From: a virus
Reading direction: 5' to 3' (one strand)
DNA length: 64,000 nt
IMG/VR virus record: IMGVR_UViG_3300039355_000083
Shown here: piece after piece, positions 20,439 to 59,810 of the stretch
Layout of the letters: each line of letters opens with the position of its first letter
How positions within the stretch are numbered: position 1 is the first letter of the stretch
Notes under the pieces: model-generated
The model's database searches: none
The model's input: only the letters and a program-made list of their open reading frames with translations
Told to the model about the DNA's origin: nothing
Translations under genes and position numbers: made by a program

Positions 20439-20523
20439 TAGCGGTATGATGAAATTGGCTAGACATAATAGACTTTGACTCTATTGAGCAGTAGCTCGTG
20501 TGGGTTCGAATCCCACTACCGCC
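20439..20523 (+). tRNA. type-II-shaped tRNA (long variable arm) with anticodon UUG
   Basis: Folds by hand: acceptor AGCGGTA/TACCGCC (A1.C72 mismatch), 3-bp D stem, anticodon stem ATAGA/TCTAT with loop CTTTGAC (U33, anticodon TTG, A37), 15-nt variable arm GAGC-AGTA-GCTC, T arm GTGGG-TTCGAAT-CCCAC. No encoded CCA. Confidence 0.5.
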
Positions 20524-20603
20524 GTTTGGCAAGTATTTTATACAAATATACTCCAGCCGAATTGCAGAGAAATATAATTTAATTATACAAAAAGGAGATA
20601 AAA

Positions 20604-21722: not shown

Positions 21723-21889
21723 AAATTTAATTAAACATTCCGATGAATAAAAACTTTAGATATGTGGAAGTTCGGTTATAAGCATGTGGCTTTCATTTTA
21801 CTTTTTACCTCTTATAACTCGTTTGAAGCAGGTCTTACGAGTATAAATAAACTGTATAAGGGTAAGCCGGTAGTAACCTTATACAACAA

Positions 21890-21969
21890 GCGGATATGAC
21901 GGAACTGGCAGACGTAGAAGGCTCAAACCCTTCGGAGAAATCGTGTGGGTTCGAATCCCACTATCCGTA
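21890..21969 (+). tRNA. tRNA-Leu (anticodon CAA)
   Basis: Acceptor GCGGATA/TATCCGT, U8, 3-bp D stem ACG/CGT with a GG-containing D loop, anticodon stem GAAGG/CCTTC with loop CTCAAAC, 11-nt variable region, T arm GTGGG-TTCGAAT-CCCAC. Confidence 0.6.
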
Positions 21970-22412
21970 TTCGGACTATTCTTACGGATTTACTTGATGG
22001 CCTAAATAGTAATGAGGAGAAACAAGTCCGGAAGGTTGACCTTTATATTATATAGCGTCTATAGGACATTAAAGAAGATTGAAAAGTTGGTGGAATACTG
22101 GAACCCAGTGATGAGGAAGCTGCGAATGTGTTGGTTGTATGGTTTGGACGCATTGAAAGGAAACATTTATATAGATGTGCTTTGTGCTAATGAGGTTGTA
22201 AGTGGGAAGTTGGAGGATGATCTGGTTAAGCAGATGTGTAGATTAGTTATGAAGCAAAAAAGTAATTGAGTCAGTGAGGTAGAAATAATGTGGGAGGGCT
22301 TTTGAGAGTGATGACGATTGCTCGTGTAACTGACACGATTGCATAAGCAAGTTTTTTTACAGATATTGTTACATTTCTATATTGTGGGTGTAATTATAAC
22401 GCCCACTACAAA

Positions 22413-22486
22413 GGAAACTTAGCTCAGTTGGTTAGAGCAACCGGCTCATAACCGGTCGGTCCTGGGTTCGAGTCCCAGAGTTTCCA
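22413..22486 (+). tRNA. tRNA-Met (anticodon CAU; elongator Met or lysidine-modified Ile2)
   Basis: Canonical cloverleaf: acceptor GGAAACT/AGTTTCC, D arm GCTC-AGTTGGTTA-GAGC, anticodon stem ACCGG/CCGGT with loop CTCATAA, T arm CTGGG-TTCGAGT-CCCAG. Confidence 0.85.
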
Positions 22487-22570
22487 TTAAAAGAAAAATG
22501 AAAGGAGAGATATAAAATTCTTATAAATAATCCCGTAAAAATAATAATTTAAAATAAAGGAGATTAAATT

Positions 22571-23350
22571 ATGGCTATCGTTGGTGCAATCTTAGGTGAT
22601 ATTGCAGGTTCACAATATGAATTTGGTAGACCAATTGATTTAGATTGGAAGAATTGTAAGTTATTTACTGATAGATGTTATTTTACAGATGATACTGTAA
22701 TGACACTTGCTGCTAAATTAGCAATTATTAATAATAAATCTTTCACAGAATCATATAGAGAATGGGGAAGAAAATATCCAAATGCAGGATATGGAAACAA
22801 TTTTGAAACGTGGTTAAGATACGATGATAAAACTGCATACGGAAGTTTTGGTAATGGATCTGCAATGAGATGTTCTTATATTGGAGAACATTTTAACACA
22901 GAGAAAGAAGTTATTGAATGGGCTACTAAGTCTGCTGAGTGTACGCATAATCATCCAGAAGGAATTAAAGGGGCGGTTGTAACAGCAATGTGTATTTATA
23001 TGGCAAGAACAGGAGTTACTAAAGAGGAAATCTATGAATATGCGAAGAAGAATTATCCAAAAGACGATTATCAATATAGTGTTGAATATAAAATTGAAGA
23101 CTATAGAAAGATATATCAGTGGAATGAAACTTGTCAAGGAAGTGTACCTGTTGCAATTAGATGTTTTTTAGAGAGTGGTGATTATGAAAGTTTCTTGCGA
23201 AACGTGTTCTCATTAAAGTGTGATATGGATACGTTATGTGCTATAGGTGGTGGAATTGCGGAAGAATTTTATCACGGAACTGGATTAAACAATGATTACT
23301 TACTTGGACATTACCTGAATAGACAATTGTACAGGATTGTAGAAATGTGA
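22571..23350 (+). CDS. ADP-ribosylglycohydrolase (ARH/DraG family)
   Basis: N-terminal 'IVGAILGDIAGSQYEF' plus the 'TDDT' motif and 'GNGSAMR', all typical of the ADP-ribosyl-(arginine/dinitrogenase reductase) hydrolase fold. Confidence 0.7.
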   Translation: MAIVGAILGDIAGSQYEFGRPIDLDWKNCKLFTDRCYFTDDTVMTLAAKLAIINNKSFTESYREWGRKYPNAGYGNNFETWLRYDDKTAYGSFGNGSAMRCSYIGEHFNTEKEVIEWATKSAECTHNHPEGIKGAVVTAMCIYMARTGVTKEEIYEYAKKNYPKDDYQYSVEYKIEDYRKIYQWNETCQGSVPVAIRCFLESGDYESFLRNVFSLKCDMDTLCAIGGGIAEEFYHGTGLNNDYLLGHYLNRQLYRIVEM

Positions 23351-23544
23351 GGTTAGATATGAAATCTTATATAGGATCATTATTGATAGGAATACTATTA
23401 TCATTAATTTTTACAATTGGTATGTCTTTTTCAAGACTCGATATTCTTGATGATAGAAAGAGACTTGTTTTGGCTATCGGTGATTTTATTATTATGTGTA
23501 TATTATTTTCGTTGTTTATTACGGGAATGTTTTTAATAGGATAA
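23347..23544 (+). CDS. small membrane protein (2 TM)
   Basis: 65 aa hydrophobic ORF translationally coupled to the ARH gene. Confidence 0.4.
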   Translation: MRLDMKSYIGSLLIGILLSLIFTIGMSFSRLDILDDRKRLVLAIGDFIIMCILFSLFITGMFLIG

Positions 23545-23584
23545 TAAGTGATTCGATGGAATGTGAGATTCGAGAGGTGACAGA

Positions 23585-23806
23585 ATGAAAATTAAGAAAC
23601 TATTAATTGGATTGCTTGTATCGGGATTGGCATTTTCGTTTACTGGATGTGGTGACAAAGAGATAAATGACAATGGAGAAAAAGTTCAATCATTCGGTCA
23701 ATTTATTGAAATTAAGGAAATACAAATCGTATCAAGTAATGGGTTTAGTCGATATAGTCAATATTTTGTATATGATAAAACCACTAAAATTGTATATGTA
23801 GTATAA
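23585..23806 (+). CDS. small lipoprotein
   Basis: Signal peptide with lipobox 'FTGCGD'. An in-frame TAA is followed by 34 more sense codons (see findings). Confidence 0.5.
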   Translation: MKIKKLLIGLLVSGLAFSFTGCGDKEINDNGEKVQSFGQFIEIKEIQIVSSNGFSRYSQYFVYDKTTKIVYVV

Positions 23807-23981
23807 GGTTCAGACCGTTATGGTGGCATTGGTGGCATTACACCATATTACGTATTAGATGAAAATGGCAAACCAGAAATCGCAATCTATGGAGAAAATT
23901 ATAATGGATAAGGAGAAAGAATAAGTACACATAATCCTGTTGTGACTGCAGTACGACAGGTCATGCATGTAAAAAAAAAGA

Positions 23982-24051
23982 TGACATATAGTCTAACGGA
24001 AAGAACGTGGCTTTTTAAGCTGAAATATTGGTTCGAATCCAATTGTGTCAT
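23982..24051 (+). tRNA. degenerate tRNA-like element (possible tRNA-Lys UUU remnant)
   Basis: Good acceptor (TGACATA/TGTGTCA) and T arm (ATTGG-TTCGAAT-CCAAT), but the anticodon stem is weak (2 Watson-Crick + 2 wobble pairs) and the variable loop is 3 nt. The best loop reads TTTTTAA (anticodon TTT). Confidence 0.3.
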
Positions 24052-24128
24052 ATTTGTAATGATGTCGCGCGGATCATTACAGAAGAAAATAGTAACTACT
24101 GAAATGTATATTTAAGGAGGCAGTAAAC

Positions 24129-46641: not shown

Positions 46642-47394
46642 TTGGGGATCACGGACATGATTTGGGTAACTGGAGATACGCATGGGGATTGGATCCATAG
46701 AGTTAATATGGATTCTTTTCCCGAACAGCGTGAGATGTCGAAGGACGATTATGTGATAATTCTTGGAGATTTTGGGATATGGAGAGATTCACCGCAGCAA
46801 AGGTGGTACCTGAATTGGCTTGAAGAGAAACATTTCACAACACTCTTTATTGACGGAAATCATGAGAATTACGATATATTAGATTCTTATCCGGTAGAAG
46901 AATGGCATGGTGGTAAGGTGCATTTTATTAAACCATCGATAATTCATCTTATGAGAGGACAGGTATTTGATATAGACGGATTAAAATTCTTTACCTTTGG
47001 AGGAGCTTCAAGTCATGATATTTCAGATGGAGTATTAGAGATTGACGATCCAAGAGTAAAAGAATGGAGGGATGATCCGGATAAAATGTACCGAATCAAT
47101 CATATTTCATGGTGGGAACGAGAAATGCCAAATCAAGAAGAGATGGATGAGGGTATAAAGAATCTGGCAGAACATGATAATAAAGTAGATTTTATCCTGA
47201 CACATTGTACAGCTTCTTCTACAGCAGCATTATTATCACATGGATTATATAAGCCAGATAAGTTAACTAATTATTTTGAAGAAATAAGGTGCAATGTTGA
47301 TTATAAGCGTTGGTTGTGTGGACATTACCACGACAATAAAGCAATAACAATAAAAGATATAGTTCTATATGAACAGATTGTGAGGATCGCATAA
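46642..47394 (+). CDS. calcineurin-like metallophosphoesterase
   Basis: Motifs 'GDTHGD', 'GDFGIW' and 'GNHE' of the binuclear metallophosphatase fold. Confidence 0.7.
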   Translation: MGITDMIWVTGDTHGDWIHRVNMDSFPEQREMSKDDYVIILGDFGIWRDSPQQRWYLNWLEEKHFTTLFIDGNHENYDILDSYPVEEWHGGKVHFIKPSIIHLMRGQVFDIDGLKFFTFGGASSHDISDGVLEIDDPRVKEWRDDPDKMYRINHISWWEREMPNQEEMDEGIKNLAEHDNKVDFILTHCTASSTAALLSHGLYKPDKLTNYFEEIRCNVDYKRWLCGHYHDNKAITIKDIVLYEQIVRIA

Positions 47395-47856: not shown

Positions 47857-48213
47857 ATGCCGGAACGTAACAGAGGGTATTTGAGAAAGCAAAGACTACG
47901 AAATATTGAACGTAGAAAAAAATTAATAAGTCAACGAGAACTTATGTATCATGGATATAAAACTTTGAACGATCCTGATTTTAAAGAGGGGATGTTACAT
48001 AAAGGACACAGTGGACGACTTGGCATGGGTGGAACTGCAGTAAAAACTAATACTCGTAAAGGACATGCTTCATATCGACATAAAGGTGCTTATGGTCCAG
48101 CAGATAATTATTCAAGACATGATAAGCAGCAAGTTGAAGATGGAGCACAGCAAATTAAAGAATGGGAGAATAAAAATGAAAAAAGAGAAAAAGAAAGTTC
48201 TGATTGTGATTGA
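47857..48213 (+). CDS. hypothetical basic protein
   Basis: 118 aa, K/R/H/G-rich. Confidence 0.4.
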   Translation: MPERNRGYLRKQRLRNIERRKKLISQRELMYHGYKTLNDPDFKEGMLHKGHSGRLGMGGTAVKTNTRKGHASYRHKGAYGPADNYSRHDKQQVEDGAQQIKEWENKNEKREKESSDCD

Positions 48214-48727
48214 TGTACAGAATGATTTTGTAACCGGTTCACTTGGTACACCGGAAGCCCAAGCTATTATTCCGAATGTAAAAGAGAAATTTGATGAATA
48301 TAAGAATAATAAGAACTATGTAATTCTTACAAAGGATACTCATCATTCAGATTACGCAGATACTTCAGAGGGCAGAAAACTTCCTGAACATTGTATGTAT
48401 GGTACTAAAGGTTGGGAAATTGTTGATGAACTTGATTATAAAAATCTCGATAGTTTTATGGTATGTTGTAAATCTACTTTTGGATTTGATGACTGGAATT
48501 GGGAAGAAATATTTAATACTACAGATGGTTCTTTATTAGATATTGAAATTATTGGCATATGCACAGATATCTGTGTTATTACGAACGCTCTTTTGATTAA
48601 AACTTATTATCCAGAGGCAAAAATCACAGTTGATGCATCATGCTGCGCAGGATCAACACCGGAAAAGCATAAAGCGGCTCTTGATGTAATGGAAAGCTGC
48701 CAGATTAATGTAATCAATAGAAATTAA
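48176..48727 (+). CDS. pncA: nicotinamidase/pyrazinamidase (isochorismatase fold)
   Basis: 'KKVLIVIDVQNDFVTGSLG' is the canonical PncA N-terminus (catalytic Asp). The Cys-containing C-terminus 'GICTDICV' is present. Start moved to the ATG with RBS GGGAGAA. Confidence 0.75.
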   Translation: MKKEKKKVLIVIDVQNDFVTGSLGTPEAQAIIPNVKEKFDEYKNNKNYVILTKDTHHSDYADTSEGRKLPEHCMYGTKGWEIVDELDYKNLDSFMVCCKSTFGFDDWNWEEIFNTTDGSLLDIEIIGICTDICVITNALLIKTYYPEAKITVDASCCAGSTPEKHKAALDVMESCQINVINRN

Positions 48728-48735
48728 ATTAAACA

Positions 48736-49374
48736 ATGGAGGGAATTAAAATGATGAATAATTTTATGAATGGAATGTTTGGAAAAATCGGTAGTGGAAT
48801 GTGCAAGTTATCCATGAGCGGTAATATTGCGGTAAAAACTTCTAATGGATATAAGAGTTACAATGTTAAATCCGGCAAGCTCACAAACTGTGGCAATTTC
48901 GTGTTTCCTGGAGTAGATGAAAACTTTTTCTTCGTCATTCCTACAAATAAGGTAACTAAAGGAGATATTATCCTTGTAAATGGCAAACCTAAGTGCGTCA
49001 TCGAAGCAGATAAAACAAAGATCACTGTAATTAATTATGAGGACTCTACAGTTGAAACAATCCTGCCGGAACGCCATGTATTTATGGGCAATACTTATTT
49101 CTATGGGAAAATTGTATCGATGTTCGGAAGTAATCTTGGAAAAGATAAGAATAGTGCAAACAAAATCTTTAAATATATGATGATGTCTCAGATGATGAAT
49201 GGAGCAGCCGGTACCGGAACTGGAACTGGAACGGACAACAATCCGATGAATGCTATGATGCCATTTATGATGATGAGTGGAGGTATGGGAGATGTATTTG
49301 ACGGTATGTTTGATTTTAGTATTGATGATACAGATGCAGAAGATAGTGAAGATGATTTAGAGGAGGATGAATAA
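48736..49374 (+). CDS. Met/Gly-rich protein with acidic tail
   Basis: 212 aa with M-rich low-complexity tracts ('MMMSQMMNGAAGTGTGTGTD...PFMMMSGGMG') and a D/E tail. Confidence 0.4.
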   Translation: MEGIKMMNNFMNGMFGKIGSGMCKLSMSGNIAVKTSNGYKSYNVKSGKLTNCGNFVFPGVDENFFFVIPTNKVTKGDIILVNGKPKCVIEADKTKITVINYEDSTVETILPERHVFMGNTYFYGKIVSMFGSNLGKDKNSANKIFKYMMMSQMMNGAAGTGTGTGTDNNPMNAMMPFMMMSGGMGDVFDGMFDFSIDDTDAEDSEDDLEEDE

Positions 49375-49376
49375 TT

Positions 49377-50276
49377 ATGGGATGTGGAAGTTGGGATACT
49401 AGAAGTTTTGTAAGTTATTCAACATCAAAAGGATATGACACTGATTCACGAGGAGTAGTTACAGGAAGTTATTCTAATCAGGAAATGTTTAAAGCAAAAA
49501 ATATTGATGCAGCACTCGATCCTAAAGGTGTTATTAGAGAATGTTGTGATAATGAAGAGCATCCGAATACTTTACCAGTTATTTTAGCTTTGGATGTCAC
49601 AGGATCTATGGGACAGACCGCAGTAGAAATTGCAAAAAGACTTAATGAAATCATGACAAAATTATATGGTCAGATTAAAGATGTAGAATTTATGATTATG
49701 GGTATTGGTGATTTAGCATATGATAATTATCCAATTCAGGCATCACAGTTTGAATCCGATATTAGAATTGCGGAGCAGCTTGATAAAATCTATTTTGAAT
49801 TTGGCGGCGGAGGTAATTGTTTCGAGTCATATACTGCTGCTTGGTATTTTGGATCTCGTCATACAAAACTTGATTGTTGGAATAGGGGTAAAAAAGGCGT
49901 AATTATCACAATTGGGGACGAACGTCTTAATCCGTACTTACCAGTATCAGGACGACGCTCTGGATTAGGAATTACAACTGGCGATACGCTTCAGGCCGAT
50001 GTAGAAACTAAAGATTTATATATGGAAACATCTGAGAAATTTGATATTTATCACATTAATGTAAATCATCGTGATGGATATGACCAGAGAGGAATAGTTG
50101 AGTCTTTTTCAGAGTATCTTGATGATAATCATTTTAGGACCATTAATCGTCTTGATGATATTGCAGATGAAATTGTAAAGATTGTAGTTGCGGCTGCAGA
50201 AAATAATGAACCTGTAGTAGTCTCATCCACTGTAATTTCTGCAGAGACAGATGAATCAGGAGCTATTGTTTGGTAA
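49377..50276 (+). CDS. von Willebrand factor A (vWA) domain protein
   Basis: MIDAS-like 'LALDVTGSMG' plus downstream 'GGGN' and 'TIGDE'. Confidence 0.6.
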   Translation: MGCGSWDTRSFVSYSTSKGYDTDSRGVVTGSYSNQEMFKAKNIDAALDPKGVIRECCDNEEHPNTLPVILALDVTGSMGQTAVEIAKRLNEIMTKLYGQIKDVEFMIMGIGDLAYDNYPIQASQFESDIRIAEQLDKIYFEFGGGGNCFESYTAAWYFGSRHTKLDCWNRGKKGVIITIGDERLNPYLPVSGRRSGLGITTGDTLQADVETKDLYMETSEKFDIYHINVNHRDGYDQRGIVESFSEYLDDNHFRTINRLDDIADEIVKIVVAAAENNEPVVVSSTVISAETDESGAIVW

Positions 50277-50288
50277 GGAGAATAACTT

Positions 50289-51392
50289 ATGAAAGATATA
50301 AAAATTGTCATCGGAGCAAACTTTGGTGACGAGGGCAAGGGCAAATTAACAGATTATTATACTAAAAATGCAGATAACTGTATCGTTGTGTGTTCAAATG
50401 GCGGTGCCCAGAGAGGACATACAGTATTAAAATCAGATGGAACCCGGCATGTCTTTCACCATTTCGGCTCTGGAACATTAAACGGAGCAGATACTTATTT
50501 ACCGGAGGATTTTATTTTAAATCCTCTGGTATTTAGGGAAGAATGGGAAGAGTTGAAGAAATTAGGATGGGAACCTTATGTGTACGTTCATGAACAATGT
50601 ATGATTACGAATCCTCTTGATATGATGGCAAATCAAATTATTGAGCGAAGTCGCGGTAATAATAAACACGGAAGTTGTGGAATGGGTATTTATAATACCA
50701 TTCAACGATATAAAAAGCATATTGATTCATATTCATTATCATGGACATATTATATGAACATGTTCAAAAACATGGGAATTACGTTATCTGAGCAGGAAGA
50801 AGAATTATTTCATCCCGTAAAAAATCCTGGGCTTCGAGACCATTACAATGAAGATCTTGATTTTATGATGTCTCATGTACATGTTGTAAATAATATTCAA
50901 TTACTACTTAATGGATACGACACCATTGTGTTTGAAAATGGTCAGGGGCTTCTTTTGGATCAAAATAATACTGAATATTACCCACATCTTACACCATCAA
51001 ATACTGGTATTAAGAATCCTGCCAGAATTATAAAGGCTATAAGATGGACTGATGAAATTAATATAGAAGCTTGTTATGTGACACGTACATATATGACGCG
51101 GCATGGAGCCGGTGCGTTCCCAACTGAATGTAATAAGGAAGAAATTAATCCGGACATCAAAGATTTAACCAATGTTCCAAATCCACATCAGGATACTTTG
51201 AGATATGGGAAGTTAAATGTTGAAGAACTATATGAAAGATGTCAAGCAGACATAATAAGTGCAGGTTTTCCGTGTCAAAAAACATTGGCTATAACTCATT
51301 TTAAAGAATATTGGGAGCCAGTTGCACTTATACGTGAAACGTTCAAGAAAAGTAACTGGGGATTTAGTATTTTTCATAAGGAAGAGAATTAA
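50289..51392 (+). CDS. short adenylosuccinate synthetase homolog (PurA-like; PurZ candidate)
   Basis: P-loop 'GANFGDEGKGK' and 'GGAQRGHT' match the PurA catalytic motifs. At 367 aa it is nearer archaeal-type PurA/PurZ than the ~430-aa bacterial PurA. Confidence 0.65.
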   Translation: MKDIKIVIGANFGDEGKGKLTDYYTKNADNCIVVCSNGGAQRGHTVLKSDGTRHVFHHFGSGTLNGADTYLPEDFILNPLVFREEWEELKKLGWEPYVYVHEQCMITNPLDMMANQIIERSRGNNKHGSCGMGIYNTIQRYKKHIDSYSLSWTYYMNMFKNMGITLSEQEEELFHPVKNPGLRDHYNEDLDFMMSHVHVVNNIQLLLNGYDTIVFENGQGLLLDQNNTEYYPHLTPSNTGIKNPARIIKAIRWTDEINIEACYVTRTYMTRHGAGAFPTECNKEEINPDIKDLTNVPNPHQDTLRYGKLNVEELYERCQADIISAGFPCQKTLAITHFKEYWEPVALIRETFKKSNWGFSIFHKEEN

Positions 51393-51667
51393 ATTGAATA
51401 AAGTAAAAGAACAAATTATGCAATTATCACAAAAACCAGAATGTATAGATTTAATGCTGCATGACGATTTAAAAGACGATTATTCTTTCAGAACAAATAT
51501 TCAAGATATAGCATCTTTACTGAGTGGGATATTAAATATTATGCAGCAAGCAAATCTTACTGATAAAGAGCTTGCCGAACTAGAACAATTATATAATGAA
51601 AGATATGAAACTAATAAGTCTGGATTGGGAACCAGTAACTGTATTACATGGTAGAAAGGTGATTTGA

Positions 51668-52471
51668 ATGATTAAATTAAACGACGTAGAAATCAAACTT
51701 GATAAATATCCGGATGGAACATTCTTATTTAAGGATATTCCTCCTATTGGCGGATGGCACAGAGATAATATTGAATGGTTCTTTGAATCAATGGAAGAGT
51801 TAACAGCAGTTGAATATATTACTAGATATTGTTGGGATCATAGAGTAGTGCCTAATTTATATATGCCTTATATCCCAGATGCACGTATGGACCGAGTTAA
51901 GCATAAGAACGAATTATTTACTTTAAAATATTTTGCTCAGACTATTAATTCATTACATTTTGGAAAAGTAGAAGTTTTAGATCCGCATTCTGATGTATCT
52001 GCCGCATTATTTAATAAAGTACATGTAGAATCCCCGAATCGAATGATTGAGGATGCTGTTAAGAAGATTGCGAGTAATAACCTTATGATGTTTTATCCGG
52101 ATGCGGGATCCATGAAGCGATATTCTTCAGCAGTACATCTTCCATATGCTTTCGGTATTAAGAATAGAGATTGGGAAACGGGAGAGATTAAAGGTTTAGA
52201 TTTATCAGGTGAAATTGATCAGTTACCAGGTAAAGATATCCTTATTGTAGATGATATTTGCAGCAGAGGCGGAACTTTTTATCACAGTGCTAAAAAACTG
52301 AAAGAGGCCGGTGTAGGTAAGATTTATCTTTATGTAACTCATTGTGAAAACACTATTTATGAAGGAGAACTTCTGAAAAATAATGGATTAATTGAGAAGA
52401 TTTATACGACAGATACGATTTTGACAAATCTGGAAAGTCCTAAGATTGAATTGGTTGAGAGGTTTAGATAA
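51668..52471 (+). CDS. ribose-phosphate pyrophosphokinase-like PRTase (Prs/Adps-like)
   Basis: PRPP-binding motif 'ILIVDDICSRGGT'. The 267-aa length is that of the short Prs-like enzymes that accompany phage NadV genes. Confidence 0.65.
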   Translation: MIKLNDVEIKLDKYPDGTFLFKDIPPIGGWHRDNIEWFFESMEELTAVEYITRYCWDHRVVPNLYMPYIPDARMDRVKHKNELFTLKYFAQTINSLHFGKVEVLDPHSDVSAALFNKVHVESPNRMIEDAVKKIASNNLMMFYPDAGSMKRYSSAVHLPYAFGIKNRDWETGEIKGLDLSGEIDQLPGKDILIVDDICSRGGTFYHSAKKLKEAGVGKIYLYVTHCENTIYEGELLKNNGLIEKIYTTDTILTNLESPKIELVERFR

Positions 52472-52519
52472 GGAGGAATATTATGAAACAAATTATTATT
52501 CCTTTAGGGTGGTGAGAAA

Positions 52520-52990
52520 ATGAAAGAAATTTTAGGAAATAATCTTGAACAATTCTTTTTTGTATTATTAGATTTATTAGATTACCAAAAAGAATGTGGA
52601 GCGATATGCACATACAAGAGTAATAGATATGAAGTTTGGTTAATGTATGATGAAACATTTAATAGGATCTCAGATATGTCAGAAGAAGAATTTGTTAAAT
52701 TCGCAGGTGAAGATGCTTGGTGGAGAAGTAGCAATGGTAGTGTATTATATTCACTTGATAAAGGAGAAATAACAATTAATCATAAGAAAATGATTGGATG
52801 GATTAGAAAACCTGGGGATGAAGAAATATCAACAGATATTGAATATTCATCATTAACAGAATATTTATGTGAATTTATTGGGGCTTCTACACCTCATAAT
52901 GTTGTTGCTTGTGCAATGGATTTGGGTAAATTTAATCATTTGACAATGGGTAGATTGTTTAAAAAATATGAACCAGTGGAGGATGAATGA
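52520..52990 (+). CDS. hypothetical protein
   Basis: 156 aa ORF. Confidence 0.45.
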   Translation: MKEILGNNLEQFFFVLLDLLDYQKECGAICTYKSNRYEVWLMYDETFNRISDMSEEEFVKFAGEDAWWRSSNGSVLYSLDKGEITINHKKMIGWIRKPGDEEISTDIEYSSLTEYLCEFIGASTPHNVVACAMDLGKFNHLTMGRLFKKYEPVEDE

Positions 52991-53285
52991 AGAAATGATG
53001 TTTACAGTTTGTAATGTTCCAAAGTTTTTAGAGGAACAGATGAATAAAATGAAAGACACTATTACGAGTGATATGAATGAAGATAATCTTAAAGGTTATG
53101 AGTATGCAGTTGAAACTATGTTAAGTATTATTAGACAGACAATTCATGCTGCCGAGATGGATGATGAAATTCTTGTGCATAGCGATAAGATTGCTGATGA
53201 GAACGATATTGAAGAGTTTGATTTACATGATTTGTTAGGACTTTATGGTTGTAGAGTTGTGGCACAGAAAGAATTTGAAGAATAA
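52968..53285 (+). CDS. hypothetical acidic protein
   Basis: 105 aa ORF. Confidence 0.4.
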   Translation: MNQWRMNEEMMFTVCNVPKFLEEQMNKMKDTITSDMNEDNLKGYEYAVETMLSIIRQTIHAAEMDDEILVHSDKIADENDIEEFDLHDLLGLYGCRVVAQKEFEE

Positions 53286-53363
53286 TACATGCAAAAAAGC
53301 AATCTTTTTTCGGAGAATCAATGTGAAATATGAAAGAATGCAAGAGGAATGGAGAAATAGTAT

Positions 53364-53705
53364 ATGAAAGCACAGATTTGCGAAACGTGTGTACATAAAC
53401 ATGATAGATGTTATTGCAGTCCGAATAGTACATGTGATAAGTATAAGAAAATTCAAATGGTAGAAAAGAAATCATGGGAAGAATTTAAGAATAACGGATT
53501 TCTCTGGTGGATTAATATGATTTTACATACATTCGGATGGGCGATTTGTGTAGATATCGAAGAAGACGGATCAGTTTCAAATGCTTATCCTGCCAGAGTA
53601 AAATTCAGAGGATTTGCAGAGAAGAATAATACAGATGGTTATATTAAAGTCAGTCAATATTTGAAAGACAATGTGGACGAGCTTGTAAAAGAAGCGAATG
53701 ATTAA
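53364..53705 (+). CDS. Cys-rich hypothetical protein
   Basis: 'CETCVHKHDRCYCSPNSTCDKY' N-terminus. Confidence 0.4.
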   Translation: MKAQICETCVHKHDRCYCSPNSTCDKYKKIQMVEKKSWEEFKNNGFLWWINMILHTFGWAICVDIEEDGSVSNAYPARVKFRGFAEKNNTDGYIKVSQYLKDNVDELVKEAND

Positions 53706-53714
53706 GGAGGAGTT

Positions 53715-55190
53715 ATGAATAATACTTTAGCAATTTTACTTTCAGATACATATAAACAAATTCATAATAAAATCTATCCAAAAGGATTAACAAAACTTGT
53801 TTCCTACTGGACTCCACGACGATCAATGCTTAAGAATCAGAACAAAATGGTTTTCTTTGGTTTACAAGCATTTATTGAAGAATATCTGGTTGACTATTTC
53901 AATGAAAATTTTTTCGAGCTAACAGCAGTAGAAGTTGAGCATACATATAAATACAGTATGGATATACAGTTAGGAAATAGTTATGACCTAGAGCCTATTA
54001 TGAAACTTTATAAATTAGGTTATCTTCCAATTCAGATACGTGCTATCCCGGAGGGAACATTAGTACCAATGGGCATTCCATGCATCGAGATTACAAACAC
54101 ACATCCAGATTTTGCTTGGGTAGTACAGTGGATAGAATGTATCCTGCAGGTTGAACTCTGGAAACCATGTGCTCATGCAACAATTAGTCATATGTATAGA
54201 GAACTTGCAAACAACTACTATAAAATGACTTGTGATGACTTTTTAAGACCTGAAATGGCATGCTCAGACTTTGGTATGAGAGGAATGTCTTGCATGGAAG
54301 AGGCAGTAAGATGTTCATCTGCTTGGTTATTATCATTTGATAAGACAAGTACAATTCCGGCCATTGATTATATAGATACGTATTATGATGCTTGCTGTTG
54401 GACTAAAAGAATCGGAATTGGTGCTGTATCAACAGAACATTCAGTTATGGCTTCAAATTATGCAGTAGACGGTGATGAAATCACATTTGTAAAAAGACTA
54501 CTTACGGAACTATATCCTAATGCATCTTTCAGTATGGTATCTGACACTTATGATTACTGGAATATGATTGATAATATTCTTCCGGCTTGTAAAAAAGAAA
54601 TCATGCAGCATAATGGTAAACTTCTGGTTCGTCCAGATTCCGGAGATATGGTAGAAATTGCTGTAGAGACAATTGAAAAGCTTTGGAATACATTCGGCGG
54701 AACAGTAAATAGCAAGGGATATAAAGTGCTTGATCCGCACATTGGAATTATTTATGGGGACGGATGTACTCTTAATAATGTAAAGCAGGTATGGGAAAAA
54801 CTGAAGAAAAAAGGATTTGCTGCAAACAATATCGTATTCGGAGTCGGAGCATTTTGCTTCTCAGCAGTTATAGAACCCGATGGACATATGGTTGTTGTAA
54901 CCAGAGATATGTTTGGTATTGCTATGAAAGCCACCTATGGAATTGTCAATGGCGAGCCAATTATGATCTATAAAGATCCAAAAACCGATACGAGTCATTT
55001 GAAAAAATCTCATAAAGGGTGTTGTTGTATATATTACGATGACAATGGAGAATTACAGTGTGAAGACGGGTATAATGATGTATTTCGTGACGGAGCGTTA
55101 AGTACCGTATTTGTAGATGGGAAAGCTTGCAATAAAGAAACATTTGAAGACATTAGAGAAAGATTAAACGGAGGAAACAAAGATGAGTAA
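53715..55190 (+). CDS. nadV: nicotinamide phosphoribosyltransferase (NAMPT/NadV-like type II PRTase)
   Basis: N-terminal 'ILLSDTYKQIHNKIYPKGLTKLVSYWTPR' parallels NAMPT 'ATDSYK...YP...VYSYFECR'. 491 aa. Confidence 0.7.
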   Translation: MNNTLAILLSDTYKQIHNKIYPKGLTKLVSYWTPRRSMLKNQNKMVFFGLQAFIEEYLVDYFNENFFELTAVEVEHTYKYSMDIQLGNSYDLEPIMKLYKLGYLPIQIRAIPEGTLVPMGIPCIEITNTHPDFAWVVQWIECILQVELWKPCAHATISHMYRELANNYYKMTCDDFLRPEMACSDFGMRGMSCMEEAVRCSSAWLLSFDKTSTIPAIDYIDTYYDACCWTKRIGIGAVSTEHSVMASNYAVDGDEITFVKRLLTELYPNASFSMVSDTYDYWNMIDNILPACKKEIMQHNGKLLVRPDSGDMVEIAVETIEKLWNTFGGTVNSKGYKVLDPHIGIIYGDGCTLNNVKQVWEKLKKKGFAANNIVFGVGAFCFSAVIEPDGHMVVVTRDMFGIAMKATYGIVNGEPIMIYKDPKTDTSHLKKSHKGCCCIYYDDNGELQCEDGYNDVFRDGALSTVFVDGKACNKETFEDIRERLNGGNKDE

Positions 55191-55656
55191 AATTACAGAT
55201 TATTTATTAAAAGATGATGTGATTGTAGTAATGGATGTAGATGGAGTACTTGCTCCGTATGAGTTCTCTGAATTAAGTCATAGTATGACTGATAATGAAT
55301 GGGATAGACTTGTAGCTTCCAGTGAGAATCCGTATAAAGATGTGCGTCCGATTAAATTAATGCAAGAGTTCATTCAAAAGAAAGGTATTGACAAAGTATA
55401 TGCTTGTTCAAAGAGTCCTTTCAGTGAGATCCCCGGCAAAAGAGCTTTTATCAAAGATAATTACGGCCTTCCGGATGATAATATCTATTTTACTTTAGAA
55501 AAGACAGAAAAACTTACTGTGCTTCAGACGCTGCAACAAAAGCTTGGGCTTAAGCCGTCTCAGATTGCAATTGTAGAGGATACAGTAAAAACTTTGGATT
55601 ATATTCGTGCACATAGTGATTTTGTAACTGTACACGTTTCATCATTTATGGAGTAA
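55183..55656 (+). CDS. HAD-superfamily 5'(3')-deoxyribonucleotidase-like phosphatase
   Basis: Motif I 'VVMDVDGVLAPYEF' (DxDGVL) resembles the NT5C family. Confidence 0.5.
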   Translation: MSKITDYLLKDDVIVVMDVDGVLAPYEFSELSHSMTDNEWDRLVASSENPYKDVRPIKLMQEFIQKKGIDKVYACSKSPFSEIPGKRAFIKDNYGLPDDNIYFTLEKTEKLTVLQTLQQKLGLKPSQIAIVEDTVKTLDYIRAHSDFVTVHVSSFME

Positions 55657-55671
55657 AGAGGAGTAAAGAGA

Positions 55672-56622
55672 ATGAATTTACAAAGTATTAGTAGATATAT
55701 AAGTCTTATATTAAGACATAAGCCTGAAGTTATTGGTATTACTATAGATGAACATGGTTGGGCGAATGTAGAAGAACTGATTCAGGGTATCGCTAAAAAC
55801 AATCCCGGATTCAACAAAGAATTTTTAGAGGAAATTGTACGGACTGACAATAAGCAGCGATATTCTTTCAATGATGACAAGACATTGATCAGAGCGAATC
55901 AGGGACATTCAATTCCGGTAGATGTAGAACTGGAAGAGAAAGAGCCACCTAAAATTCTTTATCATGGAACTGGCGAGAAATATATAGCGTCTATTGATCA
56001 GAATGGACTGATTCCTAAAAGTCGTTTATATGTTCATTTGTCAAAAGATGTTGAAACCGCCAAAGCTGTCGGCAAGAGACATGGTAAAGAAGTTGTTTAT
56101 TCTATCAATAGTGAACAGATGTACAAAGATGGATACAAATTTTACTTATCTAAAAATGGAGTTTGGCTGACTAAAAGGGTTCCAGTGAAATATTTAATGA
56201 AGGAAGGTATAAAAATGAGTAGTACATATTTTACGGATTCAGTTTCAGATCTTTGTCAGGGGATTGTTGATAAAGCAGATACTTATGAAAAACGAATTAA
56301 ATACTTAGAAGAAGAAAACAAGAAGCTCAAAGATGAGCATTATAAAGATTCTGAAATGCAGAGAATGGAAGCAGAACTGAAAAAAGCGAAAGAGGATCTG
56401 TATAGAGGATTTCCAATTTCAGAAAAAGAACAAGAGAAAATCAGAGAGTGGGAATTAAAACATGATGCTGAGAAACATGGTTTGAAAACTATGGAACAGA
56501 GAGCAATGGGACATGGTTGCATAGGCGGCTCTCTTACATGGTGCTTTACACCAACATCAATCGGAACTATTGGAGAAGTGATTTGCTCCTGTGGCGAGAA
56601 GTTTACATTTCAGGATTTATAG
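55672..56622 (+). CDS. kptA: RNA 2'-phosphotransferase Tpt1/KptA with C-terminal coiled-coil/Cys extension
   Basis: Tpt1 signature blocks '[27 protein letters not shown]', 'IRANQGHSI' and 'LYHGT'. Confidence 0.75.
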
Positions 56623-56632
56623 GAAAAGATTT

Positions 56633-57133
56633 ATGATTAAAATTATTGAAGGTAATATCGTTAATGCAAAGACAGATTTTATAATTCATCAGGTTAACTG
56701 CCAAGGAGAAATGAACACTGGAGTCGCTAAAGCATTAAGAGATTATGATGAAGGCATTTATAAACACTATAGAAAGTTTTGTGAGTTTTGTAAGTTCGAG
56801 TCGGAAGAACTACTCGGAACGTGTGATGCATATTTATTGAAAGATAGAGGTCAAATTGTATTGTCTTTATTCGCACAAAATAAATATGGATATGATGGTA
56901 AACAGTATACAGATCTTGAAGCTTTTAGATATGGTTTAAGATATATTTCGCAACATTTTGGAGTATGGCGTGAAAAAAATGGACTAGAAGGAAAAGATCT
57001 TTGTAGAACTTCAGTAGCACTTCCGTATAAGATTGGTTGTGGAAGAGGGGGAGCAGACTGGGAAATGGTTTATAAAATCATTGAAGAGGAACTTAAAGAT
57101 TATGATGTGGAATTATGGAGGCTGGATGAATGA
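56633..57133 (+). CDS. macro domain protein (Poa1p-like, ADP-ribose/ADP-ribose-1''-phosphate processing)
   Basis: 'IIEGNIVNAKTDFIIHQVNCQGEMNTGVAKAL' and 'IGCGRGGADWEMV' match the macro-domain ligand-binding loops. Start moved to the ATG at 56633. Confidence 0.7.
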   Translation: MIKIIEGNIVNAKTDFIIHQVNCQGEMNTGVAKALRDYDEGIYKHYRKFCEFCKFESEELLGTCDAYLLKDRGQIVLSLFAQNKYGYDGKQYTDLEAFRYGLRYISQHFGVWREKNGLEGKDLCRTSVALPYKIGCGRGGADWEMVYKIIEEELKDYDVELWRLDE

Positions 57134-57555
57134 GCGAGGCGATGAATATTATTATAGCCGGTTCACGAGATTTTGATGATTATCGTTTGCTTAAGAAAAC
57201 TGTGTCAGATTATATCGAAGAGAATCAAGTTAATAACACTCAGCAAATTAGAGTTATCAGTGGTGGTGCAAAAGGTGCAGATAGGCTTGGTGAATGTTAT
57301 GCGTTTGATAATGGTTACTCCGTTATAAGATTTCAAGCGTTATGGGGAGTTTATGGAAAGTCTGCTGGCCCTAGACGTAATAATGAAATGGCAAAATTTG
57401 CATCAGAATCAGGCTCTGGTACGTTGATCGCATTTTGGGATGGTGAATCGCGAGGTACAAAAAATATGATTGATACTGCAAGAAGATATGGATTACATGT
57501 AATTGTAGTTGAATATGAAAAAGATTCGGAGGAATTAAATGAACAGAAAAGATAA
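57130..57555 (+). CDS. SLOG-superfamily (DprA/LOG-like, DUF2493-type) nucleotide-binding protein
   Basis: 'IIIAGSRDF...ISGGAKGADRLGE...IAFWDGESRGTKNMI' fits the SLOG Rossmann-like signature common in phages. Confidence 0.55.
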   Translation: MSEAMNIIIAGSRDFDDYRLLKKTVSDYIEENQVNNTQQIRVISGGAKGADRLGECYAFDNGYSVIRFQALWGVYGKSAGPRRNNEMAKFASESGSGTLIAFWDGESRGTKNMIDTARRYGLHVIVVEYEKDSEELNEQKR

Positions 57556-57823
57556 TACATTAGAAGGAATAGGTGCGTTTACAGTAATCATCCTTGCGAT
57601 TTTCACTCTTGTTATTAGTCCGGCATTATCATTTATGTTTGCTTACATAGGTGGATGTATACTGAAATTTTTTGTAGGGGACGCATTGGTTAATGGATTA
57701 AATATCATATTTAATACAACTAGATTTACGAAACCAATGATCCCTGTTATTTGTGCAACAATTGCAACAATTGGTAAATATTTTAAAACAACAGTCGATA
57801 TGTCAAGACATAAAGGACAGTAG
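57539..57823 (+). CDS. small membrane protein
   Basis: 94 aa with 2-3 predicted TM helices. Confidence 0.4.
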   Translation: MNRKDNTLEGIGAFTVIILAIFTLVISPALSFMFAYIGGCILKFFVGDALVNGLNIIFNTTRFTKPMIPVICATIATIGKYFKTTVDMSRHKGQ

Positions 57824-57877
57824 GAGTTACATATAAATTCTTATGAAAGTAAGAAAGGAACTGCAGGAGGAATCAAA

Positions 57878-58237
57878 ATGAAAAAGGTAACTACTATATT
57901 AATTCTTCTGCTTATCAGTGCATTTATGTTGACTGGTTGCGCTAAATGTATTGATAAGAAAGAAGAAAGTGTAAAAGTCAAAATTGTTAATGAATACTAT
58001 AAACCGAAAGAAACTCGTTTCATAGGTATAATTAATCATGTTCCACAATTTCGGACAGATTATGCCGAGTATGAAATTACGGTAGACTATAACGGAGTGG
58101 AATATTCACTTAGTGATGAAAGTACATATCGTAAATATCATGGAAGAATAGGACAAACAGTGTCTGCCGTATTGATTACAAAGACATATGATAATGGCAA
58201 TGTTAAACAATATATTAATTGTTTAGGAGGATTATAA
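57878..58237 (+). CDS. lipoprotein
   Basis: Signal peptide with lipobox 'LTGCAK'. Confidence 0.5.
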   Translation: MKKVTTILILLLISAFMLTGCAKCIDKKEESVKVKIVNEYYKPKETRFIGIINHVPQFRTDYAEYEITVDYNGVEYSLSDESTYRKYHGRIGQTVSAVLITKTYDNGNVKQYINCLGGL

Positions 58238-58238
58238 G

Positions 58239-59000
58239 ATGAAATATTACGATGGATATTTTAAAGAACTCAAGAATGAAATTGTACAGTGGATCAGAGA
58301 CTGGTTCGATCAGAATGGTCCCGGCTGCAATGCAATTGTAGGAATCTCTGGTGGAAAAGATTCTTCCGTAGTAGCAGCGCTTTGTGTAGAAGCTCTTGGA
58401 AAAGATCGTGTAATTGGTGTACTAATGCCACAGGGTCAGCAGAAAGATATTTATGCTGCGTACAAGCTTTGTGAATTTCTTGATATTAAATCATACGAAA
58501 TCAACATTAGCGACACAGTTCGAAGTGTATTGTCAAGACTCGAAAGCTCAGGAATCGAGATCAGCGAACAGACAAAAATAAATCTTCCGGCACGTATTAG
58601 AATGTCTACATTATATGCTGTCTCTCAGTCTTGTAATGGAAGAGTAGCAAATACATGTAATCTTTCAGAATCATATGTCGGTTATGAAACCAGGTATGGT
58701 GATTCGGCAGGTGATTTTAGTCCGTTAGGAAAATTAACTGTATATGAAGTTAAAAAACTTGGATATGAATTATTGCTTCCTACAGAACTTATTGAAAAGA
58801 TTCCAATTGATGGATTATGTGGAAAGACAGATGAGGACAATTTAGGATTCCCATATGAAGTTCTGGACAGATATCTTCGTACAGGAGAGATTGACGATCT
58901 GGCTGTAAAAGCTAAGATTGATTTAATGCATAAACGATGTCTCTTCAAATCAGAGAAGATTCCGGTATTTAATCCTGAATTAAAAGTGGAGGCAGAATAA
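58239..59000 (+). CDS. nadE: NH3-dependent NAD+ synthetase
   Basis: PP-loop 'GISGGKDSSVVAAL' and NadE-like C-terminus ('LGFPYEVLDRYL'). 253 aa. Confidence 0.65.
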   Translation: MKYYDGYFKELKNEIVQWIRDWFDQNGPGCNAIVGISGGKDSSVVAALCVEALGKDRVIGVLMPQGQQKDIYAAYKLCEFLDIKSYEINISDTVRSVLSRLESSGIEISEQTKINLPARIRMSTLYAVSQSCNGRVANTCNLSESYVGYETRYGDSAGDFSPLGKLTVYEVKKLGYELLLPTELIEKIPIDGLCGKTDEDNLGFPYEVLDRYLRTGEIDDLAVKAKIDLMHKRCLFKSEKIPVFNPELKVEAE

Positions 59001-59260
59001 TGGAGAACATATTTATATCATTCTTGTTAATCGAAATTCTTTTCACAACAATTTTAATAATTAATTGTGCAATTGATGAATTATTACCAATAAAAGAATA
59101 TAAAAAGTGGTCCCAAAATAAAAATTGGTTCGGTAAGATATATATATTTCTTACAGTTATATTTACTATTCCTGCAGCAATTATTATATATATCGCTTTT
59201 TCCATTGTGTTCTTAGTAACATTTATTTATACACTTGGAATTAAAGAGGAGAAGAAATAA
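59000..59260 (+). CDS. small membrane protein
   Basis: 86 aa with 2 TM helices. Confidence 0.4.
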   Translation: MENIFISFLLIEILFTTILIINCAIDELLPIKEYKKWSQNKNWFGKIYIFLTVIFTIPAAIIIYIAFSIVFLVTFIYTLGIKEEKK

Positions 59261-59261
59261 C

Positions 59262-59810
59262 ATGAAACCATATGATGTTGGGCTTGTTTGTGGGCGTTTT
59301 CAAACGTTCCACAAAGGCCATGAAAAACTTATTGATACTGGGTTATTGCTTTGTGATCGGATGCTTATTCTTGTTGGCAGTGCACAAGAATGTGGGACAA
59401 AACGTAATCCTTTGAATGTTAATACTAGAATCAAGATGATACGTGAAGTATATGGTGATGATCCAAACATTATGATTTATGCATTATCAGACCTTACTGA
59501 TGAAAATGATATCACACCAGATTGGGGTAGATATCTTCTTCAAAATGCAGATCGATATATTTATAAAAATCCAGATGTAATGATTTATGGTAATGATGAT
59601 AGCCGGAGTGGATGGTTCGACAAGAAAGATTTAAAGAACACAACCGAATTAATCATTAATCGTGAAGAATTACCCATCTCTGGGACCATGTTGAGAGCAC
59701 TTATGATACAGGATAAACGGCGAGAATGGATGACTTTTGTTAATCCTAAGTTACATAAAATGTATGATGAAATTCGTAGTGAACTTATGGAAAGCATAAA
59801 GGAGAATTAA
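59262..59810 (+). CDS. nicotinamide/nicotinate mononucleotide adenylyltransferase (NadM/NadR-type NMNAT)
   Basis: (H/T)xGH motif 'GRFQTFHKGH' and C-terminal 'ISGTMLRAL' (ISxTxxR). Start at the ATG with RBS AAGAGGAG. Confidence 0.7.
   Translation: MKPYDVGLVCGRFQTFHKGHEKLIDTGLLLCDRMLILVGSAQECGTKRNPLNVNTRIKMIREVYGDDPNIMIYALSDLTDENDITPDWGRYLLQNADRYIYKNPDVMIYGNDDSRSGWFDKKDLKNTTELIINREELPISGTMLRALMIQDKRREWMTFVNPKLHKMYDEIRSELMESIKEN

Follow-up and report, generated by a model that had tools for sequence, protein, structure and literature searches.

The subject of this analysis is an island of NAD+ enzymes at positions 48176-59810 of a 64,000-nucleotide stretch of viral DNA, IMG/VR record IMGVR_UViG_3300039355_000083; this whole stretch is called the window below. 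The DNA of the island is that of a large gut phage. The window has a G+C content of ~33% and nearly all its genes on the + strand, and it encodes, upstream of the island, replication-type proteins (a DnaB-like helicase, a DNA polymerase, ExoV/Dda, NrdD and an NAD-dependent DNA ligase); near-identical copies sit on IMG/VR viral contigs of 100-177 kb, and a gene 100% identical to its Nampt-like gene is found on an IMG/VR viral contig (L012). A sequence-only reading of the window had listed five NAD+ biosynthetic enzymes here and described the region as a phage NAD+ island. Both claims hold: profile searches find all five enzymes where they had been placed, all on the + strand, and their clustering recurs in more than 140 related loci. 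Four are core genes and the fifth is accessory:

48176-48727, + strand: PncA-like nicotinamidase, core gene 1 (Pfam isochorismatase PF00857, E 2.9e-23)
51668-52471, + strand: Adps-like ADP-ribose pyrophosphokinase (Prs-like), core gene 2 (phrog_619, 235 bits)
53715-55190, + strand: Namat-derived transferase (Nampt-like), core gene 3 (PF04095 and PF18127)
58239-59000, + strand: NadE, NH3-dependent NAD+ synthetase of the short single-domain type, core gene 4 (PF02540, E 5.5e-53)
59235-59810, + strand: NadM-type adenylyltransferase for nicotinamide mononucleotide (NMN) or nicotinate mononucleotide (NaMN), accessory (PF01467; NF002243, 61.6 bits; PDB 1F9A)

The closest solved relative of the PncA-like protein is the P. 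horikoshii nicotinamidase 1ILW, with which its Asp/Lys/Cys triad and Asp-His-His metal site align. QueC, which the sequence-only reading had raised as another possible identity of the NadE gene, is a marginal match, while PF02540 is strong and TIGR00552 gives 179 bits (cut-off 63.65), so this objection does not apply. The adenylyltransferase (NMNAT) is nearest to archaeal NadM-type NMNATs, carries the motifs GRFQxFHKGH and ISGTxxR, and lacks a Nudix domain; indeed, a Nudix box is absent from every frame of the window. It is the sole, NadM-like adenylyltransferase of the window, in which no NadD was found (NadD models give it 19-20 bits against cut-offs of 112-315). A PncB-type nicotinate phosphoribosyltransferase (NAPRTase) was not found in the window either: the only phosphoribosyltransferase there belongs to the Nampt/Namat family.

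The Adps- and Namat-like pair and its pyridine pocket

For the Prs-like and Nampt-like proteins, the sequence-only reading had left open whether they are a Prs/NadV pair or the Adps/Namat pair that makes up the phage pathway NARP1 (Osterman et al., bioRxiv 10.1101/2024.02.11.579819; Namat structure, PMC12774641). Identities, PDB scores and trees favour the second alternative. In the published NARP1 pair, the "Prs" shows PF14572 alone and the "Nampt" shows PF18127 with PF04095; the window pair has this signature, the Prs-like protein matching only PF14572 and PF00156 in Pfam, both weakly and below cut-off. Against the biochemically characterised Adps of SPbetaL1, the Prs-like protein aligns over nearly its full length (41% identity, E 4e-54), with K165 in the place of the catalytic K162. 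It keeps all invariants of the Adps family, including this Lys, has P15, S108, N94 and T171-G172, which set Adps apart from Prs, and stays under the Prs family cut-off (TIGR01251, 90.6 vs 113 bits). The Nampt-like protein is likewise 41% identical to the biochemically characterised SPbetaL1 Namat in a direct comparison; among PDB entries, SPbetaL1 Namat (9W5X/9W5W) scores 395 bits, human NAMPT 206 and Xanthomonas Nampt ~155. It lacks the GGGLLQ motif of CfP1, K566 and human NAMPT, a mark of the KVP40-like, PRPP-preferring Nampt clade (PRPP, phosphoribosyl pyrophosphate), and clusters with Namat.

Phylogenetic placement, which the sequence-only reading had proposed as a check, points the same way. 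In neighbour-joining trees, with reference sequences entered by hand, the Prs-like protein is nested in the phage Adps clade, apart from the Prs of E. coli, B. subtilis and human, and the Nampt-like protein falls in a monophyletic clade, defined by Ser or Ala at the position discussed next, that adjoins the canonical Namat clade and is apart from the Nampts of a T4-like phage and of human. The two genes lie on the same strand with three small open reading frames (ORFs) between them, hence within 10 genes of each other. By the Pfam signature, the PDB scores, the 41% identities, the trees, the Adps-type positions and the sub-cut-off Prs score, the pair is assigned to the NARP1 families Adps and Namat.

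If the transferase is a Namat by descent, does it still use nicotinamide? In the crystal structure of SPbetaL1 Namat with NAD+, D215 and A242 contact nicotinamide, D215 by a hydrogen bond to the amide, and D215A lowers activity ~8-fold (PMC12774641). In human NAMPT, the equivalent Asp219 reportedly determines which substrate is used, and the change D219S is reported to "switch the substrate affinity". The human D219S enzyme is said to gain activity with nicotinic acid. An alignment of the window protein with the Namats of SPbetaL1, FADO-like phages, Staphylococcus, ICP1, Gary, Felixounavirus and Acj9, and with Nampts, shows that every reference has an acidic residue (Asp or Glu) at SPbetaL1 215 and Ala at 242; the window enzyme and its close relatives all carry Ser at both, in the window as S212 (SPbetaL1 D215, human D219) and S239 (A242), together with K210 (G213). 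This is the rule of a whole subfamily: in the sample compared at these sites, the 109 canonical sequences have D or E at 215 with Ala at 242, the 83 Ala-type sequences Ala/Ser, and the 59 Ser-type sequences, to which the window enzyme belongs, Ser/Ser. A HMMER search, exhaustive over 1.84 billion cluster representatives, puts the two types together at about one third of the nearest 150 clusters at 50% identity (28 Ala215/Ser242 and 21 Ser215/Ser242).

Among NAD+-contacting residues, D215 and A242 are those switched throughout the Ser/Ala subfamily; Y396 reads differently too, in an ambiguous part of the alignment beside an insertion. Neighbours of the pocket have also changed: G213 to Lys (Ser-type) or Asn (Ala-type), H207 to Trp, and H187 to Gly or Ser. 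The catalytic H245, R306, D308 and the ribose and phosphate contacts are unchanged, except for S190 and S391, which are altered only in the Ser-type subclade of the window, apart from an Asp at S190 in 45% of Ala-type sequences; the window enzyme itself keeps the Namat catalytic residues F189, R192, H245, R306 and D308. A pocket that has lost a negative charge and gained two hydroxyls together with a Lys or Asn would fit a carboxylate.

Namat also has a selectivity clamp for the adenine side of its substrate, which combines the SCH motif GSXΦXΦXΦTRD, whose positions 3 and 7 are aromatic, with a stacking Arg, Lys or Tyr in SCL (PMC12774641). The window enzyme and its close relatives have this motif split by a conserved insertion of 9-10 residues; in the window it reads GAFCFS, then AVIEPDGHMV, then VVTRD, with the aromatic at position 3 kept and position 7 displaced. 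The start of the motif (GAFCF) is of the Namat type, unlike the GGGLL of Nampt, and F392 and T398/R399/D400 are kept; the Ala-type sister group still has R40 and S391 as well.

Larger insertions are seen elsewhere in the family and extend many Namat homologues to 570-1100 aa (P0159, P0122 and P0152 among others; L006 2974-4770); one in P0159, ~300 aa, lies within the clamp motif itself. They may be inteins or homing-endonuclease insertions. In the single-member protein P0022, residues 1-111 of PncA are joined straight to residues 113-491 of Namat; this is probably a deletion or an assembly chimera and not a genuine fusion.

A four-gene module and a proposed deamidated route to NAD+

What accompanies the altered transferase in other genomes? 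Four IMG/VR queries (the window protein, canonical Namats and two Ser/Ala-type sets) supplied loci, to which others from GTDB genomes and GenBank phages were added. All ORFs were scanned with hidden Markov models (HMMs) made from the island proteins, and counts were made for the 236 loci in which the Namat gene has 4 kb or more on either side:

Canonical D/E215 loci (n=93): Adps 93, PncA 0, NadE 0
Ser/Ala215 loci (n=142): Adps 142, PncA 139, NadE 139

The division survives clustering of the Namats at 90% identity, with PncA and NadE each at 0/57 for the canonical and 37/39 for the Ser/Ala type. Among 85 non-identical Ser/Ala loci, the four core genes are always co-stranded and span 4.9 kb in the median and 3.6 kb at the least; their order is PncA-Adps-Namat-NadE in 64 and Adps-Namat-NadE-PncA in 21. 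Some form tight operons of abutting or overlapping ORFs with no adenylyltransferase between them (L160 8632-12193, L064 1510-5059). The 12-kb module of the window is the most expanded form, its extra genes sitting between the four core genes. Accessory genes are less constant: a macrodomain gene is present at 103/142 Ser/Ala loci, a PurA-like gene at 20/142, and an NMNAT lies inside the flanks of just 18/142.

The sequence-only reading had seen two full routes running in parallel, an amidated one (NadV, Prs, NMNAT) and a deamidated one. This part does not stand: the Nampt-like enzyme is without the amide-recognising Asp (S212), the Prs-like protein is a member of the Adps family, and the NMNAT is absent near most related modules. 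The conserved unit, PncA-Adps-Namat(Ser/Ala215)-NadE, is a single four-gene module and points to one deamidated route of ADP-ribose (ADPR) recycling.

The reading we propose, which we hold to have an even chance of being right, is that the core of the island is a NARP1-derived module for NAD+ reconstitution through deamidated intermediates, in short a deamidated NARP1. In this pathway, (i) PncA would turn nicotinamide, freed by NAD+-cleaving defence effectors, into nicotinate; (ii) the Adps homologue would use ATP to pyrophosphorylate ADPR, giving ADPR-PP; (iii) the altered Namat would couple nicotinate with ADPR-PP into nicotinate adenine dinucleotide (NaAD); and (iv) NadE would amidate NaAD with ATP and ammonia to NAD+. 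The macrodomain protein (Adpp-like), and possibly a HAD protein, would return phosphorylated ADPR derivatives to ADPR; the NadM-type NMNAT could adenylate NaMN or NMN arising from PRPP; and Tpt1 and the NAD-dependent DNA ligase would be the phage's NAD+ consumers. Evenly balanced, too, is the claim on the enzymes themselves, that Ser/Ala215 transferases catalyse nicotinate + ADPR-PP -> NaAD + pyrophosphate (PPi) and that PncA, Adps and NadE complete with them a self-contained fourth phage pathway.

Gene identities, family membership, residue switches and covariation with PncA and NadE are observed, and from them we infer the substrates of steps (ii) to (iv). With a pocket that would fit a carboxylate placed between the PncA and NadE steps, and with the ADPR-coupling ancestry of the middle pair, the NaAD route is the simplest closed pathway. 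ADPR is suggested as the ribosyl source by an Adps-family kinase, by F392 and the Namat-type start of the clamp motif (with R40 and S391 in the Ala-type), and by the macrodomain at 103 of the 142 loci. A role against host defence is probable by analogy with the tested NARP1 and NARP1-AP systems. A more general supply of NAD+ is possible as well, since the phage encodes an NAD-dependent ligase and Tpt1.

How does such a module compare with the pathways already described? With NARP1 it shares a homologous, co-stranded pair at 41% identity each, the Pfam signature, the equivalent of Adps K162 and the Namat catalytic residues. It differs in having Ser at both nicotinamide contacts, D215 and A242; in a clamp motif GSXΦXΦXΦTRD interrupted by an insertion, with Met for R40; in the nearly constant company of PncA and NadE at Ser/Ala modules, both of which are absent from the 93 canonical loci; and in the predicted product of the transferase, NaAD instead of NAD+. 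NARP1-AP of Vibrio phage Gary consists of Adps, the macrodomain phosphatase Adpp and Namat (bioRxiv 10.64898/2026.01.28.702374). In the island, the macrodomain protein is a homologue of the phosphatase that Gary encodes between its Adps and Namat, Adpp by position, but it shares only 25% identity and sits downstream of Namat beside Tpt1 instead of between the two genes. NARP2, known from Vibrio phage KVP40, combines Nampt with an NMNAT/Nudix protein; the window does have a NadM-type NMNAT, 4 kb downstream of its Nampt-family gene. However, that gene product is outside the Nampt clade, having no GGGLLQ-type motif and 26-31% identity to its weakest Nampt-family matches (from T4-like and jumbo phages, among which CfP1 alone was checked and is of the Nampt type), and the NMNAT is without a Nudix domain and does not stay with the module across relatives. 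Phages with NARP1 and NARP2 together were not reported by Osterman et al. With the Preiss-Handler pathway (PncA-PncB-NadD-NadE) the module has in common the start at a nicotinamidase, the end at an NAD synthetase and the deamidated intermediates, whereas its middle steps belong to Adps and a Namat-derived enzyme, which replace a PncB-type NAPRTase and NadD. NARP3, in which a PnuC-like transporter and a NadR-like enzyme import nicotinamide riboside and then phosphorylate and adenylate it (PMC13464706), shares the strategy of restoring NAD+ in a phage; its genes and chemistry are unrelated and none of its components is in the island, so a NARP3 reading was rejected.

Several points weigh against a deamidated NARP1, and some of them speak at the same time for a PRPP-based Preiss-Handler salvage, in which PncA, a PRPP-making Prs-like protein, a Nampt-family enzyme forming NaMN, the NadM-type NMNAT or the host's NadD, and NadE would act in turn, or, in a variant, NadE would act as an NMN synthetase with NMNAT last, as in Francisella. 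All five activities would then be encoded in the window, and the switch to Ser or Ala at 215 suits the use of nicotinate equally well. Namat still accepts PRPP in vitro, which leaves the formation of NaMN possible. NadE resembles the F. tularensis NMN synthetase (3FIU) as much as a genuine archaeal NAD synthetase (2E18), at ~111 bits each; the F. tularensis NadE homologue is an NMN synthetase (PMC3376133), and sequence similarity does not separate a preference for NaAD from one for NaMN. The adenine clamp is partly eroded in the subclade of the window, with R40 replaced by Met, S391 by Ala and Y396 displaced by the 10-aa insertion, so that ADPR-PP use is a less safe prediction there than for the Ala-type sister group. 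An AlphaFold2 model of the transferase (34 close homologues; mean pLDDT 66.5, and below 50 for residues 183-251, which hold the pyridine pocket) weakly suggests that the clamp insertion is a beta-hairpin but is too poor at the active site to help. The window also encodes an NMNAT, and close homologues of it lie elsewhere on some module-bearing contigs: among the matches listed, a few Ala-type contigs carry a distant one, ~70-80 kb from the module in IMGVR_UViG_3300045988_156458 (L228, L331). One ancestral event followed by retention, instead of repeated independent association, may lie behind the covariation with PncA and NadE, since the Ser/Ala sequences form a monophyletic clade. Finally, no description of a reaction between nicotinate and ADPR-PP was found in the searchable literature. 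The eroded clamp, the use of PRPP by Namat, the NMNAT of the window and the Francisella-like NadE thus keep the PRPP route a real rival, although an unlikely one: the Prs-like protein sits in the Adps clade with Adps-specific positions and a sub-cut-off Prs score, and SPbetaL1 Adps yielded no product in a ribose-5-phosphate/PRPP-synthetase test reaction (the substrates are "PRPP and ATP" in the text of the preprint and ribose-5-phosphate with ATP in the figure legend). Moreover, the NMNAT flanks just 18 of 142 related loci, compact four-gene operons do without an adenylyltransferase, Adpp-like macrodomains, which would make ADPR, are found at 103 of the 142, and the transferase keeps F392 and a Namat-type motif start instead of the Nampt-type GGGLL.

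An ordinary NARP1, joining nicotinamide and ADPR-PP into NAD+, with PncA and NadE as independent add-ons that top up NAD+ through the host's PncB and NadD or supply it generally for the ligase and Tpt1, would agree with the place of the pair in the Adps and Namat clades, with its fully intact catalytic residues and with the encoded NAD+ consumers (the ligase at 7651-8802 and Tpt1). This is very doubtful: the amide-binding Asp is gone from the whole subfamily, while D215A cripples SPbetaL1 Namat, and PncA would consume the supposed substrate. Independent add-ons, besides, would not be expected to track the altered enzyme, and yet PncA and NadE stand beside none of the 93 canonical modules and nearly always beside the altered one. 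Whatever the chemistry, the island could instead serve metabolism, as an auxiliary cassette giving the phage more NAD+ while it replicates in anaerobic gut hosts, with no part in counter-defence. The NAD-dependent DNA ligase, Tpt1 and NrdD of the window are in keeping with this, as is the finding that NARP2 lifts NAD+ even without any defence system. It is quite unlikely all the same, as Adps-type chemistry begins with ADPR, which accumulates mainly on NAD+ cleavage, the Adpp-like macrodomain matches the published answer to aRES defence, and all tested NARP1 homologues behaved as counter-defence.

Accessory genes, hosts and significance

Between the core genes, the island of the window carries the following:

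48736-51392, + strand: inserted cassette of an unknown protein of 212 aa, an unknown protein of 299 aa (phrog_2971) and a PurA-like protein of 367 aa; in a subset of relatives
50289-51392, + strand: the PurA-like gene of this cassette (PF00709, E 2.4e-38, residues 6-285 only; phrog_1211, 293 bits; PDB matches PurA only)
52520-53705, + strand: three small ORFs (156, 105 and 113 aa) between Adps and Namat; in the closest relatives only
55183-55656, + strand: HAD-like putative phosphatase (TIGR01509, 28 bits vs cut-off 29.4; DxDG motif)
55672-56622, + strand: Tpt1/KptA RNA 2'-phosphotransferase (PF01885, E 5.5e-48; NF002014, 259 bits vs cut-off 239)
56633-57133, + strand: macrodomain protein, candidate ADPR-1''-phosphate phosphatase (Adpp-like; phrog_335 "phosphatase", E 1.7e-37)
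57130-57555, + strand: SLOG/YspA-family protein, possible ligand-binding accessory (PF10686, E 2e-13)

The PurA-like gene always occurs together with the 212-aa and 299-aa unknowns. Its product keeps the P-loop and the equivalents of the catalytic Asp and His and, by eye, is without the TTGR aspartate-binding and TKLD guanine motifs. It matches a PHROG labelled PurZ and fails the NCBIfam cut-offs of both PurZ and PurA; an identity as PurZ was rejected (NCBIfam PurZ, 44.7 bits vs cut-off 300; all PDB matches to PurA). The three small ORFs gave no significant family match.

The HAD-like gene and the Namat-like gene share 8 nt, and the HAD-like product has no PDB match and only sub-threshold matches in Pfam and NCBIfam. 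Many relatives have the two as a single in-frame protein of 646 aa (residues 490-646 of P0002 and P0004, 95% identity), with 2406 members in the cluster of P0004. The C-terminal extension of P0028 is another one: it resembles HAD proteins only in a DxDD(T) motif picked out by eye, matches no Pfam family, and may be a second, independent fusion. At least one phosphatase-like domain, and possibly two, is thereby tied to the transferase.

The Tpt1/KptA domain takes up residues 1 to ~178 of its protein; the remaining ~140 aa are coiled-coil-like, contain Cys and match no family. Tpt1 consumes NAD+ and yields ADP-ribose 1'',2''-cyclic phosphate; together with the adjoining macrodomain it could close a recycling loop. 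That macrodomain is distantly related to the Gary phosphatase gp182 (25% identity over the full length, E 2e-9), and its matches to the DarG and Poa1p macrodomains are weak. SLOG domains bind nucleotide-derived ligands, and a role of the SLOG protein with ADPR-derived signals is conceivable. Other genes of this kind were noted just upstream of PncA in a 356-kb relative (YpsA/SLOG; L002 8073-8585) and near the Nampt of the T4-like phage CfP1 (DprA-like/SLOG; L008 1100-1684).

Directly upstream of the island, at 46642-47394, lies a calcineurin-like metallophosphoesterase gene (PF00149, 39 bits); similar genes also precede the module of L002 and the NARP1-AP operon of phage Gary. Further upstream, at 20439-24052, four clustered tRNA genes (Gln-TTG, Leu-CAA, Met-CAT, Lys-TTT) come before the replication module. 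The NAD-dependent DNA ligase is encoded at 7651-8802 (phrog_3869, E 5e-110): replication of the phage itself thus uses NAD+, which gives the phage a direct motive for guarding the NAD+ pool. A promoter and terminator scan of 47-61 kb returned counts no higher than the shuffled expectation, and operon boundaries could not be drawn. Homologues of the window NMNAT, 66-79% identical, are common on many other gut phage contigs (L181-L232, among the matches listed).

Who are the hosts? The GTDB matches are Clostridia: Ruminococcus sp. AM36-2AA, Lachnospiraceae, Acutalibacteraceae and metagenome-assembled genomes (MAGs) of Clostridium. In the cultured isolate Ruminococcus sp. AM36-2AA, a transferase 76% identical to that of the window lies at 289-311 kb of a 499-kb scaffold (L159, QTYB01000001.1), flanked by homologues of PncA, the PurA-like protein, Adps, the macrodomain protein and NadE. 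HMM matches on this scaffold have the same coordinates and scores as those on a 177-kb IMG/VR viral genome (L052, IMGVR_UViG_2873737359_000001); the two appear to carry one and the same element, which is probably a large prophage and might serve for experiments. An Ala-type PncA-Adps-Namat module was also seen on a 6.9-kb contig of a Methanomassiliicoccaceae MAG (L163, JAIRJQ010000079.1), where the archaeal assignment could be a binning artefact or reflect an archaeal virus.

Megablast of the 12-kb island against GenBank phages gave zero matches. At the protein level, the sole match above 43% identity in 50,697 GenBank phage records is an unverified faecal contig (MT835544.1), which is also the one Ser/Ala-type record among the top-ranked ones inspected; FADO and SPbetaL1 stand at ~42% in this ranking. 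The putative deamidated-NARP1 module is common in large phages of gut Clostridia, and its near absence from the databases of cultured phages would explain why the variant has been overlooked so far. Full-text literature searches found no account of it. The island, which derives from NARP1, has its pyridine site retuned and has PncA and NadE as obligate partners, is apparently undescribed.

Depletion of NAD+ is widespread among bacterial defences against viruses, examples being Thoeris, DSR, SIR2-HerA, SEFIR, Kongming and aRES, and three phage pathways that restore NAD+ are known to date. If the reading of the island as a deamidated NARP1 is true, it would add a fourth route and a new enzyme activity, and would present a natural retuning of Namat specificity at the pyridine site. 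Ser/Ala215, Ser242 and flanking pncA and nadE genes would then be simple markers with which thousands of metagenomic genes labelled "nicotinate phosphoribosyltransferase" could be given their correct annotation. The same reading, if true, would link phage counter-defence to the deamidated branch of NAD+ metabolism, which is dominant in many gut anaerobes.

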